This document shows positions 8,826 to 21,365 of a stretch of 64,000 nt of DNA, piece after piece (position 1 is the first letter of the stretch; the number at the start of each line of letters is the position of its first letter). Location of the stretch: contig CAVTBU010000003.1 in NCBI GenBank assembly GCA_963733035.1, forward strand, positions 1-64,000, read 5' to 3'. The translations under genes and the position numbers were made by a program. The notes below the pieces were generated by a model that was not told where the DNA came from, did no database searches, and saw only the letters and a list, made by a program, of their open reading frames with translations. Origin of the DNA: Pirellulales bacterium (lineage in GTDB: Bacteria; Planctomycetota; Planctomycetia; Pirellulales; PALSA-1355).

Positions 8826-8939
8826 CGGCGGCTTGCCAGAAATGTCGAATTCGGCCGCCGCGGCGGCGCCCTAAAGTTATAGTATTACCCTGCTGGGCTC
8901 TTGGAAATTGTACTTTCGCGCTGAGGGGGACTTGTTTTG

Positions 8940-10166
8940 ATGGCCAAGCTGGGAAAGATGGCGCTGATATTGGCGGGATATCTGGCCACCTGTTGCGAAA
9001 TCGCGTTGGCCCAGGCCCCAGCCGCGCCCGCCGGCGGTCGAAGCTCTGATCAGACCCAATCGTCGGAACTGTCGCTGGATGCGTTTCGACCGAAGCCGAT
9101 GCTCAACGTTGAGCGGCATCTGCTCACCCGCGCCAAGTTTCCGGTTGTCGACGTCCACGTGCATCCGCGGATTCGACTGCGGCACTCGCCGAACTTGCTC
9201 GCAGGGTTTGTGAAGCTGATGGACGCGCAGAATATTGCCGTTTGCGTCAGCCTCGACGGCGGCCTGGGCGAGGCGCTGAAGGAGCACCGCAAGTACCTCT
9301 GGACCGACTATCGCGATCGCTTCGTCATTTTCGCCAACATCGATTGGCAAGGTACCGGCAAGCGCGACGAACCGGCTACGTGGGACTGCCAGCGCCCCGA
9401 CTTCCCGCGCCGCATGGCCGATGCACTGGCCGATGCAAAGCAGCAGGGGGCCAGCGGCCTCAAGGTTTTCAAGATGCTGGGACTCAGCTACCAAAACCCC
9501 GATGGCTCGCTCATTCGCGTCGACGACCCGCGCTGGGATCCGATTTGGCAGGCTTGCGGCGAGCTGGGTTTTCCGGTGCTGATTCACACGGCCGATCCCA
9601 AGGCCTTCTTCCTGCCGATCGACGAAACCAACGAGCGGTGGGAGGAGCTCAAGCGGCATCCGGACTGGAGCTTCCATGGACCGCGATTCCCTAGCTACGA
9701 GGAGCTGCTCGAACAGTTCATTGCCGTCGTCAAACGTCATCCAAAAACCACGTTCATTGGCGCGCACGTGGCATCGAGCTCCGAAGACCTGGGCCAGGTG
9801 GGCGAGTGGCTCGATGCGTATCCGAATCTCTATGTCGATATCGCCGCGCGGATTGCCGAGCTTGGCCGCCAGCCGTATACGGCCCGCAAGTTCTTCGAGC
9901 GCTACGCCGACCGCATTCTGTTCGCCACCGACGGCCCGCGCGTGGCCGAGCGGCTCAACTACCACTGGCGGTTCATGGAGACACAGGACGAGTACTTTCC
10001 CTACGCCGAGAACGAATTTCCTCCGCAAGGCTTTTGGCGGATTTATGGCCTGGGTTTGCCGGACGACGTGCTTCGCAAGGTCTACTACCAAAACGCCGAA
10101 CGCCTGATTCCCGGCGTGCGCGAGCGGTATCAGAAGTTCGTCAAGCGCGAGGCGGCTTCGCGCTAG
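8940..10166 (+). CDS. Exported amidohydrolase family protein
   Basis: Signal peptide; DVHVH, IHTAD, GAH, ILFATD. Confidence 0.88.
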   Translation: MAKLGKMALILAGYLATCCEIALAQAPAAPAGGRSSDQTQSSELSLDAFRPKPMLNVERHLLTRAKFPVVDVHVHPRIRLRHSPNLLAGFVKLMDAQNIAVCVSLDGGLGEALKEHRKYLWTDYRDRFVIFANIDWQGTGKRDEPATWDCQRPDFPRRMADALADAKQQGASGLKVFKMLGLSYQNPDGSLIRVDDPRWDPIWQACGELGFPVLIHTADPKAFFLPIDETNERWEELKRHPDWSFHGPRFPSYEELLEQFIAVVKRHPKTTFIGAHVASSSEDLGQVGEWLDAYPNLYVDIAARIAELGRQPYTARKFFERYADRILFATDGPRVAERLNYHWRFMETQDEYFPYAENEFPPQGFWRIYGLGLPDDVLRKVYYQNAERLIPGVRERYQKFVKREAASR

Positions 10167-10867
10167 CGGCGGTTTGGCGGATCGAGGGGCCGCGCAATTG
10201 TTCGGTGCCTGGCCGGCCGCCGGCGCATGCGGCCTTTGAACTTGAAATGGTGCGAATGGCCCGGTTCGGAATTCGCAAAGTTTTCGAGTGGCCTTTTTTC
10301 GGGCTGAAAGTTGCGAGCACTTTTCTTTTCGCCTTTTGTAACCTGAAAAATGACACCTGTCGTATCCCGCAGCTTTCGTATTTTGCCCGGTATGAAACAT
10401 GACGGTCCTCCGCGCGGCCCGTGTCCAGAATTTGCCGACCGTAGGCTAGCCCAGGTGCTGGCCCGATTGATAGAGGCAAAGTCGTGAAGGGGCTTACCTG
10501 AGGCGACACGGCGGGAAAAATGTGGGAGAAGACGCGACGCGGAGCCGCCGCAAGTCGCAGCCATTCAGAGAGCCAAGTCACCATCCGCGTAGGGAATGGG
10601 TTAGAATGCAAGTCGGTGCCAGTCCTGAAGATGCCTGGCGGGCGTGCGGTTGTGCTTGTGCTACAGCGGCCGATCACCTTGCCCAACGGAGCCAGACCGG
10701 CATAGTGATTCGTAAGTGACCCGACAAACAGAAAACGGCTCGCGTCGTCGCGTCGCGTTTAGTTACTCGTAGAATATGTCGTCTCAGCTTGTACTAATCG
10801 TATGGCTTTTAAAGCTCTCACTTTAGGGACGTTTGTATTTACACGGGCAACCGCCAGACGGAGGGCA

Positions 10868-10943
10868 CGGAAAAGGGGACATCACTGATTGGTGACCAAC
10901 CCGAGGAGCCGAGGAGCGAATATCAGTGATGTCCCCTTTTCCG
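10868..10943. repeat. 22-bp perfect inverted repeat (REP/REPIN-like)
   Basis: CGGAAAAGGGGACATCACTGAT (10868-10889) and its reverse complement (10922-10943). Confidence 0.85.
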
Positions 10944-11193
10944 GTCCCAAATCGCGGCAGGGCAGCAAAATGGCCGACTTCGAAGCCCTCTACCGGTACA
11001 AATCCGAACTAGACAAAAAGCTCAATCGGGGCGACTGACATCTGTTTCCGGCCTTCTCGGATTAGACTGACCCACTACCCATTTTTCTTGCGAACGTGCG
11101 TGGTATTGGTGTCCAATTGAAATGGCGACATGCGCTGACAGCAAGCAGGCCGCTCGGCTCTGATGAACTCCAGCGCCCTGCTAGAATACCGGA

Positions 11194-11502
11194 ATGAGCG
11201 AACCGCAGCAGTCCGAAACCACTCCTGAGCCAGAACCCAAGTTCGGTTGGAACTGGATCGCAATCTGGTGGTACTTCGTCATCTCGCTATGCGGTGCAAC
11301 GATCGCGGCCTATACGATGGGGCAGCGAGTGTTGGACGAGCTGGCCAAGCGTCAGAAAGACCCACAAGCGGCGGAACTCATCGCCCAGATTCGAGAAGGG
11401 TTCGATCGCACGACAACTATCACGTCGTACGCAGCTCTCGCGGCACTTATCATATCGGGCTTCCTTTTGCCCAAGTTCTATGGGCAGATTCGGAAGAAGT
11501 AG
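11194..11502 (+). CDS. Hypothetical two-TM membrane protein
   Basis: 102-aa ORF with two hydrophobic segments; TGCTAGAAT ends 6 nt before the ATG (possibly leaderless). Confidence 0.7.
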   Translation: MSEPQQSETTPEPEPKFGWNWIAIWWYFVISLCGATIAAYTMGQRVLDELAKRQKDPQAAELIAQIREGFDRTTTITSYAALAALIISGFLLPKFYGQIRKK

Positions 11503-11547
11503 CCCCAATGGCGGAAATAGCCTGCACACACTAATCACCCACTACCC

Positions 11548-11575
11548 AGCCCCGTCCTAGTGACGGGGCTTTTTC
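11548..11575 (+). terminator. Rho-independent terminator
   Basis: AGCCCCGTC-ctagt-GACGGGGCT followed by TTTT. Confidence 0.8.
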
Positions 11576-11637
11576 ATGCGCCCCCGTCCCCTGCTAGAAT
11601 GGCCCATGCGAGCCATGACCATCCTCGGAGGTGAACC

Positions 11638-11752
11638 ATGTTTGGAATCGGGCCAGTGGAATTATTGATCGTGCTGGTGATAGGTGGCATTGCCCTGCGC
11701 CGTCGTCGGCGTCATTGTTGCTGCCGCAATCAAAACCTTGCGGCAGAAATAG
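11638..11752 (+). CDS. Small membrane peptide with TatA-like N-terminus; probable frameshift ~11699
   Basis: GGAGGTG RBS; MFGIGPVELLIVLVIGGIAL, then AVVGVIVAAAIKTLRQK* in a shifted frame. Confidence 0.55.
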
Positions 11753-11756
11753 CCCC

Positions 11757-12187
11757 ATGACCCCGCCCCCAAGCGCCGCTGGCTACGCTGGTCCCTACGG
11801 ACGCTGTTCGTGGTGGTGACGGTAGTTGCCTGTTGGCTGGCATATGCAATTCCTTGGATCAAAGCGCGCCGCGAGTTTTTATGCCGCCAGTGTTCGGTGA
11901 ATTCAACGACACGCCACCCACAACCCTCAATCGGTGGGGCAATAACTGGCCGGTAATTCGCATCGGCAGGGCTGCGCCTGCTCGGAGAGCGGGGCTTGGT
12001 TTCCGTATGGCTGCCGCCGAAGTTCTGGTCACTGGAACGTCAGGCTGAGGCAGCAAGTCTATTCCCAGAAGCTGTGATCTATAAAACCGATTCCAAAGGA
12101 ATGTGGGTGAGCCCGCGAGAGCCCGGTTATTCAGACACGTCGCGTGAGTCCCGCTCGTGTTCAACAACAAGTCCAATTTCAGACTAA
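11757..12187 (+). CDS. Planctomycete-type 'RWSLRTL' N-anchored hypothetical protein (frameshifted)
   Basis: KRRWLRWSLRTLFVVVTVVACWLAY, then LRLLGERG...LFPEA, across shifted frames. Confidence 0.55.
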
Positions 12188-12238
12188 CGCACTAGCCGGC
12201 AGCGGCGTAACTTGAACCCTGTGAAAATACTTCGCATA

Positions 12239-13246
12239 GGCTCTGTCGAAAACTCCTCCGCTAGCTTAGTCCGCTATCGCGGCGGCGTGCGTAGCGATAG
12301 GTGTGGCACGTACCAGCAAGTCTCCCAGTCGAGTGTTGCGAACTGCGTATCGCATCGCGCAGCGGGCGCTGCCGGCGTATAGTCATCGGTGCAGCCCGAA
12401 GAAGTTCACACAGCACCAGTTGTTCGCGTGCCTGGTGCTGAAGGAGTTCTTCCGGCTCGACTATCGCGGCGTCGAAGCCTTGCTGGCCGAGAATGAATCG
12501 TTGCGGAAATTATCGAGCTGCGCGTCTCGCCCGACTTCACCACGCTGCACAAAGCCTGTCGGCGCCTGCTGAAACTGCCGGCCTGCAACCGAATGCTGGA
12601 CGAGACCGTGCATTGGGCCCGTAAAACGCCGCTGCTCACCTCGCCGGTCGCGTTGGCTGCCATCGACGCCAGTGGCTTCGAGGCCCATCGGGCCAGCAAC
12701 TACTTCGTGCGTCGCCGGGCCGCAGTCGGCAAAAACGCGGGAATCTGGCGGACAATCAGCTACCGCCGCTTTCCCAAGCTGGGCTTGGTCTGCGATTGCT
12801 CGTCGCATCTCATCCTGGCCGCCGTGCCGCATCGCGGACCGAGCCCCGACTTCGATCACTGGTCCAAAGCAACGGACCAAGCTCGCGGGCGAGTGCGGAT
12901 GAAGACCTTGTTGGCCGACGCCGGCTATGACGCGGAATGGATTCACATTGCTGCGCGGATCGTGTTTGACGTCCGCACGCTGATCCCGCCCAAACATGGC
13001 CGACCTACCAACAAACTGCCCCGTCAGTACTTCCGCCGTCGCATGGCGCGAGTGTTTCAAAGCAAGCGAAAGCGCCGGCCCTACCGTCAGCGCGCCCAGA
13101 TCGAAACCGTCTTCAGCCAAGTCAAACGCCGCCTCGACTCGTCCGTCAACGCACACTCCCACTGGAGCCAGTGCCGCGCGTTGATGCTCAAGGCGCTGAC
13201 GCACAATATCATGCTCCTCAGACGAAGGCAGGTTTTCGACAGAGCC
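12239..13246 (+). mobile_element. IS5-family insertion sequence, 1008 bp
   Basis: 15-bp perfect terminal inverted repeats GGCTCTGTCGAAAAC / GTTTTCGACAGAGCC enclosing a DDE transposase; no clear target-site duplication. Confidence 0.92.
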
Positions 13247-13426
13247 ACTCCCGTCCCCTTTGTGCCTCCCCCCCTTTGTGCCTCCACAGGATTTTTGGTT
13301 GCGACCACGACGGATAATCCCGGCGGCGGAGAAATGGATATTGCGGTGGCAAAGAAGAACGATTTGGGAGCGCAGAGAGGTGAAACAATATTCGTGCCGG
13401 TACGTCATACGCTACCTGGTGGCTAA
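12303..13426 (+). CDS. IS5-family DDE transposase (frameshift ~12510; reads through the right TIR)
   Basis: SPKKFTQHQL, PDFTTL, AIDASG, LADAGYD, YRQRAQIETVFSQVKR. Confidence 0.9.
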
Positions 13427-14259: not shown

Positions 14260-14425
14260 GGCTCAGTAGAAAAGTTCCACGCGTACGAGGATCGTGACGT
14301 GGTGCGTTATCGCCATCAAGCGGAGATCTCGGCATTTGGCTTGGATGGTGCGGCCGGAGGCGCAATTGCCTTGGCGGCGTTTGATCATTGAGATCACCGT
14401 TTCTACTTGGGCGCGACGCTGGTAC
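14260..14425 (-). pseudogene. IS5-family transposase 3' remnant with terminal repeat
   Basis: YQRRAQVETVISMIKRR...LMAITHHVTIL...LFY*; end GGCTCAGTAGAAAA resembles the TIR at 12239. Confidence 0.85.
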
Positions 14426-14573
14426 TCCGCCGTTGGCGCAAGAAGAATCGCCGGCCCGCTGACGGAGCGCGAGGTTTTAAATAAGCGACGGCCTTCTTCG
14501 CCAAGCACTTGTGACCGGACCGTTCTGGCGGCGTTGAATGCAGGTCGCTAGATTTTGCCGGTTTGCGCCGTGA

Positions 14574-20894: not shown

Positions 20895-21275
20895 TTAACG
20901 ATTCGGCCAGGAGAACAGCCGCACCCGGTTGCCGTCGGGGTCGAGGGTGTTCACTTCGCGGAGGCCTTCCGGGTCGTTGGGGGGATGGTGCATCGGCGAA
21001 CCGGCCTCGTCGAGTCGAGCCACCAGCCGCGGCACGTCCTCAACTTCGAAGGCCAGACTGATCCGACCGCTGGCCGGATGCTCGGCCGGACGCGAAAGCA
21101 GGGCGATCCGAGTATCGCCGGCTTCGAGCAGCGCGTAGCCATCGTCGACCACCCGCACTAACACCCGCAAACCGAGGACATGGCGGTACCAGTTGAGCAA
21201 TTGGGGCCAGTTGGCAGTGCGCAGCTCGACACAGTACAGGCCCGGGCGGACGTCGCGGCGGAGGTCTCGATTCAT
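20895..21275 (-). CDS. VOC/glyoxalase family protein
   Basis: WYRHVLGL, LAFEVEDV, DPDGN. Confidence 0.85.
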   Translation of the reverse strand: MNRDLRRDVRPGLYCVELRTANWPQLLNWYRHVLGLRVLVRVVDDGYALLEAGDTRIALLSRPAEHPASGRISLAFEVEDVPRLVARLDEAGSPMHHPPNDPEGLREVNTLDPDGNRVRLFSWPNR

Positions 21276-21365
21276 GGTGTTTCTCTGGCGCAAAAGCTTG
21301 TGCTGGGGCAACTTGCATGGGGTCAACCGCGTCGGTCGCCGATGCCGCGTGGCGACCAGATGACA

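Follow-up and report, generated by a model that had tools for sequence, protein, structure and literature searches.

What are the short, asymmetric sites that punctuate a run of small membrane-protein genes in a planctomycete chromosome, and by what process did these genes come to be stacked there? The question is raised by a 64,000-nt stretch of DNA from a Pirellulales bacterium (assembly GCA_963733035.1, contig CAVTBU010000003.1, positions 1-64,000, forward strand), hereafter the window, in which a ACTGACCCACTACC-type site occurs three times between positions 11060 and 12197. A first-pass annotation had read the sites as boundaries of a cassette array resembling an integron, in which unrelated genes were stacked by site-specific recombination. 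Our analysis gives a different answer. The sites are the ends of DDE transposons that have moved, as target duplications, two copies with 82% identity in the bacterium's own genome and miniature transposable elements with inverted repeats (MITEs) attest, and it is likely that the copies in the window are solo terminal inverted repeats (IRs) of a family-wide group of DDE transposons resembling the insertion sequence (IS) IS1, so that the window would hold three stacked units with one IR each. This reading draws on features that can be observed directly, namely the identity of the sites with transposon IRs, 8-bp duplications, an IS1-like transposase, the conservation of both the IR and an associated module across the family, and the presence of unrelated genes between identical flanks.

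The repeated sites in the window

All three window copies are in direct orientation, one per unit:

11060..11079, plus strand: solo terminal IR copy 1, subfamily b; the minus strand reads GGTAGTGGGTCAGTCTAATC; outer end at 11079
11521..11546, plus strand: solo terminal IR copy 2, subfamily c; outer end at 11546
12172..12197, plus strand: solo terminal IR copy 3, subfamily b, with the tip mutated to CACTAGCC

Every sequence feature described in the first-pass annotation is present, with one correction of position: the 19-mer TTAGACTGACCCACTACCC lies at 11062-11080 and does not start at 11063. The 12-mer ACCCACTACCCA, said to be shared by the first two copies, is found at 11070 and 11537, and the third copy, TCAGACTAACGCACTAGCC at 12179-12197, does overlap the TAA stop codon of the last reading frame, which ends at 12187. 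It is also correct that the sites stand at gene ends, following the open reading frame (ORF) that terminates in KKLNRGD* at 11038, the 102-aa gene at 11194-11502 and the RWSLRTL frame ending at 12187. The broader description of asymmetric, same-strand boundary sites located 3' of mutually unrelated small membrane-protein genes is therefore retained here; the mechanism of site-specific recombination is not, as the sites are IRs of IS1-like DDE transposons with 8-bp duplications rather than the core sites used by tyrosine or serine recombinases.

In chance tests on the window, where a word was allowed at most one mismatch and compared with 100 shuffles, the 11-mer ACCCACTACCC gave three matches against a mean of 0.36, a number reached by none of the shuffles. 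Comparison with the background frequency, which the first-pass annotation had proposed as a check, came out differently for short and long words: over the whole genome the 11-mer on its own does not rise above background (5 copies, with 4.7 expected from base composition), whereas longer words are above chance, GACTGACCCACTACC occurring twice with 0.02 expected. Moreover, all window copies have a longer paralogue elsewhere in the 6.65-Mb genome of the same bacterium (G000, with contigs designated C4, C5, C6, C7, C8 and C10), the matches extending over 24-37 nt. Copy 1 is 95% identical over 37 nt to C6 210185-210220, and copy 2 matches C4 91653-91679 at 27 of 27 positions, 3' of an unrelated gene. 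Copy 3 differs from the 19-mer at 4 of 19 positions and was missed by a search at up to three mismatches; confirmation is provided by its paralogue at C4 92412, with which it has TCCAATTTCAGACT and the core in common, and over 12172-12197 it shows three mismatches to the 24-nt IR consensus.

Complete elements with the same ends

Four complete elements were examined, and all of them have inverted ends of the form GGTAGTG.../...CACTACC and perfect 8-bp target duplications:

C8 74032-77760 of the own genome, 3,729 bp: complete element, duplication CGAATTGC
C5 1179095-1184417 of the own genome, 5,323 bp: complete element, duplication GAATCTCG
G011 L206 10157-13867, 3,711 bp: complete element, duplication CAAAACTG
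G004 L209 2012-2153, 142 bp: MITE, duplication CGCCGGGC

Target duplications of 8-9 bp are made by IS1. In reverse complement, every array box aligns with these transposon ends and starts with GG(G)TAGTG..., and the IRs, 20-30 nt in length, fall into three subfamilies: a, comprising the boxes of an array on C6, a site at C4 91616 and the C8 and C5 transposons; b, comprising window copies 1 and 3 and the form found family-wide; and c, comprising window copy 2 and the site at C4 91653. The end of the complete element of G011 (a genome of the same family; L206 is its C1 1812000-1829000) is of the copy-1 type, that is, subfamily b. A scan of the own genome for the IRs returned 17 matches, against 0, 0 and 1 for reversed patterns. 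As a source of the subfamily-b ends, the IS1-like element on C8 was considered and rejected, its ends being of another subfamily.

The C8 and C5 elements have a core in common, with 82% identity over 1,269 nt and two abutting ORFs. The first ORF of the C8 copy matches the IS1 transposase model NF033558 (transpos_IS1, E 1.4e-17) and scores above the cut-off with NF050000, the zinc-domain model of IS1/IS1595 (32.9 vs 28 bits). The G011 transposase, with 299 aa and a helix-turn-helix (HTH) region, matches NF033558 (E 4.1e-14) and PF03400 (E 3.1e-4) and is 33-35% identical to both of the own-genome copies. Among 20 loci taken one per genome (L186-L205), a transposase homologue or fragment lies beside the motif, within 1.5 kb, in four. 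The units are linked to mobile DNA in an explicit form, the two complete own-genome transposons carrying both the IRs and the unit.

The cargo of these elements is varied. The complete G011 transposon carries an XRE-M78 peptidase gene pair, and a related element in G018 carries a Fic-domain gene. The own-genome C8 copy belongs to a tRNA-Ser island (L037, C8 70.2-86 kb) that contains an integrase, the IS1-like transposon, a DnaK-like protein of 629 aa, an ORF of the size of a DnaB-like helicase and an excisionase-like HTH protein, with no PADLOC match.

Conservation of the ends across the family

The comparison covered 33 genomes in 15 genera of the family, with reversed patterns as the control, and the searches with the 17-mer AGACTGACCCACTACCC were informative only at zero to two mismatches. 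Exact copies occur in four other genera (G013, G012, G017 and, twice, G011). At one mismatch, single copies are found in G015, G022, G018 and G017, and two copies each in G012, G010, G003 and G011. The 30 distinct sites at up to two mismatches mostly have the left extension ATTTC, where conservation between genomes ends.

The clearest array is that of G011, in which nine copies of the 17-mer lie within 10.5 kb, eight of them on one strand and with one perfect head-to-head pair; together with seven genes on C6 of the own genome, it bears out the expectation of tandem same-strand arrays. The genes carried in this nine-IR array (L206) include OsmC, GNAT, YfdX, zinc-ribbon and small membrane genes. 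Other genomes contain inverted pairs of the site 0.1-8 kb apart. Head-to-head junctions have the form CACTACC, 8 nt, GGTAGTG in G011, likewise in G012 with a different 8-mer, and on C4 of the own genome the spacer is 9-10 nt. In G011, the 8-mer CAAAACTG follows three successive IR tips, and a 409-bp unit (L206 9741-10149) has it on both sides, the pattern that is expected for repeated insertion into one duplicated target.

The terminator-promoter module and the recurring unit

The sites form part of a larger recurring arrangement, which is best seen in the C6 array (943.6-945.5 kb, minus strand). Seven co-oriented small genes of 39-112 aa, mostly not detectably related to each other, are arranged there with IR remnants at every junction but one; one junction is a 4-nt overlap, and the five others, as well as one ahead of the first gene, carry parts of a module. 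The module consists of the box, a GC-rich hairpin with a T-run, CATGCGCGGTAGAAT, 6-7 nt (often GGGGGC) and ATG. Four C6 modules have about 30 nt in common, from the end of the 3' arm of the hairpin to the ATG, three being identical and the fourth slightly different. A profile of the module finds eight strong copies in the own genome (E 1e-11 to 4e-20) and two weaker ones on C4, and its match in the window covers 11509-11610 (E 1e-11). The core, at up to one mismatch, is present in 8 of the 33 family genomes and 4 of the 15 genera, with none in any of the 33 for the reversed control; with a stricter pattern, it was found in 6 of 61 relatives, all within the family, and again in no control.

A start codon stands about 4-7 nt past the hexamer in 24 of 28 fetched modules (the span searched was 4-11 nt), opening an ORF of 31-133 aa, and most of these ORFs look like membrane proteins. 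A collection-wide scan found at least 118 stretches, 80 of which were fetched; the start-codon/ORF geometry was seen in 14 of the 18 labelled planctomycete on the basis of their titles, compared with 2 of the 62 others. Of 31 distinct modules, 27 reach a folding energy of -8 kcal/mol or better upstream of the T-run, and by eye the stem ends at the T-run in about 24 of the 31, with a conserved 3' arm and variable 5' arms. In the own genome, 63,897 ATGs start a frame of 60 codons or more; counted ahead of these, -10-like hexamers show a peak at distances of 6 and 7 nt (50 and 28, compared with roughly 5-33 at other distances), and the genes with a hexamer at this distance include housekeeping-looking ones. 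Leaderless starts are thus an ordinary minority class in this genome, and it is the fused terminator block that is the distinctive part of the module.

The gene that comes last before the IR is a small one driven by the module in three cases, encoding a 44-aa protein in the C8 transposon, a 92-aa protein in the C5 transposon and an NPY-type protein at C5 1768 kb. The unit can thus be described as a terminator-promoter, one or more small genes and an IR whose tip points downstream; the genes upstream of the IR are one or two in number, often leaderless, and encode mostly orphan membrane proteins. In arrays, the IR tip abuts the next hairpin or, where the hairpin is absent, lies 3 nt from the next promoter (C6). 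An IR-like remnant also precedes the internal module in the C8 and C5 transposons.

The genes held between these elements are for the most part unrelated. The 102-aa gene of the window, gene A, shows no similarity to a 97-aa gene on C4, yet the two have the same 28-nt 5' flank, which includes the first three codons, and the same 27-nt 3' IR. Comparison of 19 small proteins yielded few related pairs: RWSL N-termini (E 4e-7), the 97-aa C4 protein with one at C5_1184 (E 2e-8), and the fragment ORF of the window with C6 gene 7. Neither the small proteins nor the genes on either side of the C6 array gave a match in Pfam, NCBIfam or PADLOC.

Two smaller observations concern the borders of the module. 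Unrelated cassette genes at window 11194, C4 91984, C8 77617, L207 2542 and L009 start with ATGAGCGA(A/G), encoding Met-Ser-Glu/Asp, which means that the conserved left flank extends into the first codons; this common start may reflect a preference of leaderless translation or may be part of the mobile unit. The terminator that follows tRNA-Val(CAC) at C5 901356-901492 ends in the GGGGCTTTTTCATGCGC of the module, with no promoter hexamer behind it.

State of the three units in the window

The window stack contains, in addition to the three IRs, the following features:

10889..11038, plus strand: ORF fragment terminating in KKLNRGD*, similar over the final 21 aa to the C-terminal end of the last C6-array gene
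11080..11092, plus strand: T-run followed by CTTGCG, a remnant of the terminator-promoter module without hairpin
11176..11187, plus strand: extended -10 promoter CCCTGCTAGAAT, with hexamer at 11182-11187 and ATG at 11194
11194..11502, plus strand: gene A, 102 aa, intact, with two hydrophobic stretches by eye
11548..11575, plus strand: intrinsic terminator with 9-bp stem, 5-nt loop and T-run
11571..11600, plus strand: unit-3 promoter, before gene B, with TTTTCA, 18 nt and TAGAAT preceded by TG
11638..11760, plus strand: gene B, 40 aa, TatA-like stub with GGAGG ahead
11765..12187, plus strand: gene C, pseudogene of the RWSLRTL...LFPEA small-protein family, from alignment with an intact 176-aa homologue in G003
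12239..13426, plus strand: frameshifted IS remnant of the DDE_Tnp_1 type (PF01609, E 2.8e-14), abutting the stack and unrelated to the sites

Unit 1 has been reduced to a 22-aa gene tail, the IR at 11060-11079 and the T-run remnant, nothing more. The gene tail is related to C6 gene 7 (blastp, 57% identity over 21 aa, E 2e-5). The remnant compares with TTTTTCTTGCGCGG in relatives, and in G011 the corresponding arrangement is an IR followed by TTTCTTTTGCGC, 13 nt and TACAAT. Unit 2, consisting of a leaderless promoter, gene A and the subfamily-c IR at 11521-11546, is intact, and the position of the hexamer relative to the ATG at 11194 predicts a leaderless start for gene A. No Pfam or NCBIfam match was obtained for its product; a search of 5.8 billion clusters returned only the protein itself, and an exhaustive search of 1.84 billion representatives returned one relative (50% identity, E 5e-16). 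The presence of an identical CCCTGCTAGAAT 5-6 nt before both ATGs, on which the suggestion of a separate promoter for each unit had been based, is confirmed: in the copies at 11176 and 11589, 6 and 5 nt, respectively, separate hexamer and ATG. At up to one mismatch it gives three matches in the window against 0.13 expected, a number reached by none of the 100 shuffles, and genome-wide there are three copies against 0.61.

Unit 3 comprises a full module, gene B, the gene C pseudogene and the subfamily-b IR with its mutated tip. The terminator at 11548-11575 folds, as DNA, at -11.3 kcal/mol (z -3.09), and none of 200 shuffles was equally stable. Ahead of gene B the module is longer by 11 nt and, with its T-run plus CA located 18 nt ahead of TGCTAGAAT, constitutes a canonical two-hexamer promoter in which the terminator T-run provides the upstream hexamer. 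Gene B is regarded as a TatA-like stub because its first ~17 aa match the TatA of the own genome (the true tatA lies at C5 ~900159; blastn, 76% over 59 nt) and the remainder diverges. Gene C lacks a start codon in frame, contains two frameshifts that compensate each other as well as a TAA in frame at 11954-11956, and has had its 3' part replaced. Given an ORF fragment, a TatA-like stub and a pseudogene among its genes, the window locus is a largely decayed remnant of limited functional weight, and the interest lies in the family-wide pattern rather than in this copy.

The IS remnant at 12239-13426 is 94% identical over 162 nt to C7 381632-381793. Together with a second transposase-like fragment at 14263-14508, it marks an IS graveyard.

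Possible origin of the arrays

Several results weigh against our reading of the window as stacked units of an IS1-like transposon group. The transposases score 64.3 and 53 bits with NF033558 (cut-off 100) and 21.5 bits with PF03400 (cut-off 24.1), and as these equivalog matches lie under the curated cut-offs, the assignment is to be read as IS1-like and not as proven membership. No complete element of subfamily b or c was found in the own genome, whose transposons carry a ends. A loose scan of the 33 genomes, of the kind that had been proposed with a position weight matrix, did not recover an enriched motif: at up to three mismatches the 17-mer was no commoner than the reversed control in most genomes, and for this reason only near-exact matches are counted here. 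Neither a search at up to three mismatches nor a separate IR scan found an inverted partner IR for any window unit, and no target duplication or left IR was found for the window, C6 and C5 1768-kb units; their own transposition is accordingly something that we infer as history. Finally, in relatives the module stands mostly alone behind ordinary genes, with no recognisable IR, so that module and IR are separable.

With these points in mind, we suggest that the stack would have arisen through transposition beside resident ends, with the transposase part later lost by deletion between direct IR copies. Given the IR-like remnant before the module in the C8 and C5 transposons, an IR-IR deletion could leave precisely the order IR, module, gene, IR. 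In addition or instead, genes may have been exchanged by homologous recombination through the conserved flanks of ~30-45 nt, and each unit would be transcribed independently.

A tentative extension of this model, to which we give less weight than to the reading itself, is that the group acts as an integron-like accumulator built on a DDE transposon, in which elements insert by preference at the outer tip of a resident end, yielding the junctions of IR, 8 nt and IR, deletions between direct IRs drop the transposase, and arrays grow whose single-gene units each have one IR, an insulating terminator and a leaderless promoter. The units would then be degenerate mobile insertion cassettes that could still be moved by a transposase in trans, and the promoter block GGTAGAAT... 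may have descended from the opposite IR. A direct comparison of the promoter with a degenerate opposite IR was not significant: GGTAGAATGGGGGC has GGTAG and ~10 of 22 positions in common with it.

The rival account that survives best, unlikely as the main process in our view, is shuffling of the kind known from the PeSL (promoter-early stem-loop) cassettes, which are the promoter-plus-stem-loop elements of T4-type phages that recombine to mini-circles (PMC2839356, PMC4122927). According to this account, the modules, with the IRs as a second patch, provide portable homology through which small genes are inserted, deleted and swapped by RecA-type recombination, no transposase step being involved in building the arrays. 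The modules are indeed stem-loop and promoter composites between orphan genes of a variable region, the anatomy by which PeSLs are defined in PMC2839356; the four C6 modules are nearly identical while their genes differ, gene A and the 97-aa C4 gene stand between the same flanks, and the hairpin-less junctions resemble deletions within the module. However, shuffling leaves unexplained the transposon IR at the end of each unit, the complete elements with duplications that carry the terminal unit, and the junctions of IR, 8 nt and IR, and the available homology is short, at about 25-45 nt per patch. PeSL-like shuffling and the transposon reading are not mutually exclusive, and homologous exchange through the conserved flanks probably acts as well.

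The integron-like system that had originally been envisaged, with a tyrosine or serine recombinase encoded elsewhere stacking cassettes at a short asymmetric site, appears very improbable. It would account for the same-strand single-gene arrays bounded by one asymmetric conserved site in the window, on C6 and in G011, and for the conservation of that site across genera. Against it, the site forms the tip of elements that encode a DDE transposase and generate 8-bp duplications, and the cassettes have promoters of their own. Folding of the boxes is no more stable than that of shuffled sequences (z +1.31 and -1.04), in agreement with the earlier remark that attC palindromes are lacking. Linkage to a recombinase was not found: the genome has 16 PF00589 and 7 PF00239 matches, none on the window contig or beside the C6, C4 and C5 units, the only integrase near a unit (C8 70405-70941) belongs to the tRNA-Ser island, 7 kb away, and the ORFs of the window scanned for protein families (1-24.6 kb) include no recombinase other than IS transposase remnants.

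That the motifs are ordinary punctuation, i.e., shared 3' untranslated regions of diverged paralogues or chance likeness with no mobile origin, fits the background frequency of the bare 11-mer and the leaderless -10 promoters being a general minority class, but is hardly credible in view of the exact 17-mers in other genera, the inverted pairs with target duplications and the unrelated genes between flanks.

Two further origins of the boxes were tried and rejected. For a tRNA or tmRNA origin, only chance matches of 7-10 nt to the 96 tRNA genes were found, with no likeness to the tmRNA 3' end by eye. In REP/RAYT systems (repetitive extragenic palindromes and their associated transposases), a GTAG tag stands beside a stem-loop of 5-13 bp and copies flank a Y1 transposase, as outlined in PMC3733652; the reverse strand of our boxes starts with GGTAG but no stem follows, and the nine PF01797 matches are all off the window contig.

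Comparison with known mobile systems

In their zinc domain of the IS1/IS1595 type at the N-terminus, their IRs of ~25-30 nt, their 8-bp duplications and the passenger genes within their ends, the elements resemble the IS1 family and the transporter IS (tIS), which are defined by their passenger genes in PMC3129680 and PMC7986276; the two abutting ORFs of the C8 copy are a further point of likeness to IS1. They differ in that the similarity is distant, below the NCBIfam and Pfam equivalog cut-offs, in their size of 3.7-5.3 kb with several cargo genes, in a cargo end that is a self-contained unit of terminator, promoter and small gene, and in the many solo ends in direct arrays.

MIC231, from the Bacillus cereus group, is the prototype of the mobile insertion cassette (MIC). 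Like MITEs and solo IRs, MICs are named as IS derivatives in PMC3129680 and PMC7986276, and what the present units have in common with MICs and MITEs is that they lack a transposase while keeping IS ends. The 142-bp G004 element, with its duplication, is a textbook MITE. Unlike a MIC, the window and C6 units keep one recognisable IR each, in direct orientation, and with one IR per unit they fall outside the two-IR definition, within which only the G004 element is placed.

With PeSL cassettes, the likeness lies in terminator-plus-promoter composites that flank orphan genes in hyperplastic regions and in unrelated genes between the same flanks. The setting here is a bacterial chromosome, the promoter is mostly leaderless and the units also end in transposon IRs. 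Integron arrays likewise consist of single-gene units that point the same way, lack an assigned function and end in a conserved 3' boundary element, but here attC fold and IntI are both absent, a DDE-transposon end serves as the boundary, and each unit has its own promoter and terminator.

A literature search, with ISfinder and subscription journals outside its scope, found no description of these elements. What seems to be new is the combination of a distant IS1-like group in Pirellulales, a self-insulated and mostly leaderless single-gene cargo end, and solo ends that delimit arrays. The mobile DNA of planctomycetes is poorly charted, and the results define a group of IS1-like elements that extends through the family, can be recognised by its ends and comprises cargo forms, MITEs and solo ends, which explains a class of conserved intergenic 17- to 30-mers. 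They also point to a candidate promoter type, terminator-fused and mostly leaderless, that serves many small orphan membrane proteins in a group with almost no promoter data. If end-targeted insertion followed by deletion is true, it would represent a transposase-based route to integron-like cassette arrays.

Genomic setting

In G001, a genome of the same genus, the amidohydrolase gene (window 8937-10166) and the glyoxalase gene (20895-21326) stand next to each other, which makes the IS-rich segment at 10.2-20.9 kb specific to the own genome; G002 and G003 differ again. The same-genus genomes are 75-80% identical in the neighbouring amidohydrolase gene and have none of the array DNA in common. 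The expectation that breakpoints in relatives would coincide with the motif was not borne out, the synteny breakpoints with these genomes falling elsewhere. The segment carries CAP-domain, DUF1328, CMD, DUF302 and deaminase genes, as well as a gene for a 794-aa CBM2/cadherin-like protein that is also present in G002.

The window further contains, on the minus strand at 1-356, a tmRNA gene (RF00023, 142 bits) whose 3' end is cut by the contig start. A non-coding-looking repeat of ~300-490 nt at 10257-10746, without an Rfam family match, has at least 10 copies with 81-91% identity on C4, C5, C6, C7 and C10. A palindrome with 22-nt arms at 10868-10943 has copies at C10 165-166 kb and C6 843.6-844.9 kb and may belong to a REPIN-like family, as two Y1_Tnp (IS200/RAYT-like) genes lie at C6 843749-844563. 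Elsewhere in the own genome, 44 of the 96 tRNA genes, with duplicates, are located on one strand at C6 241456-268483, a cluster that could represent either an array of tRNA genes or the region of a giant prophage.

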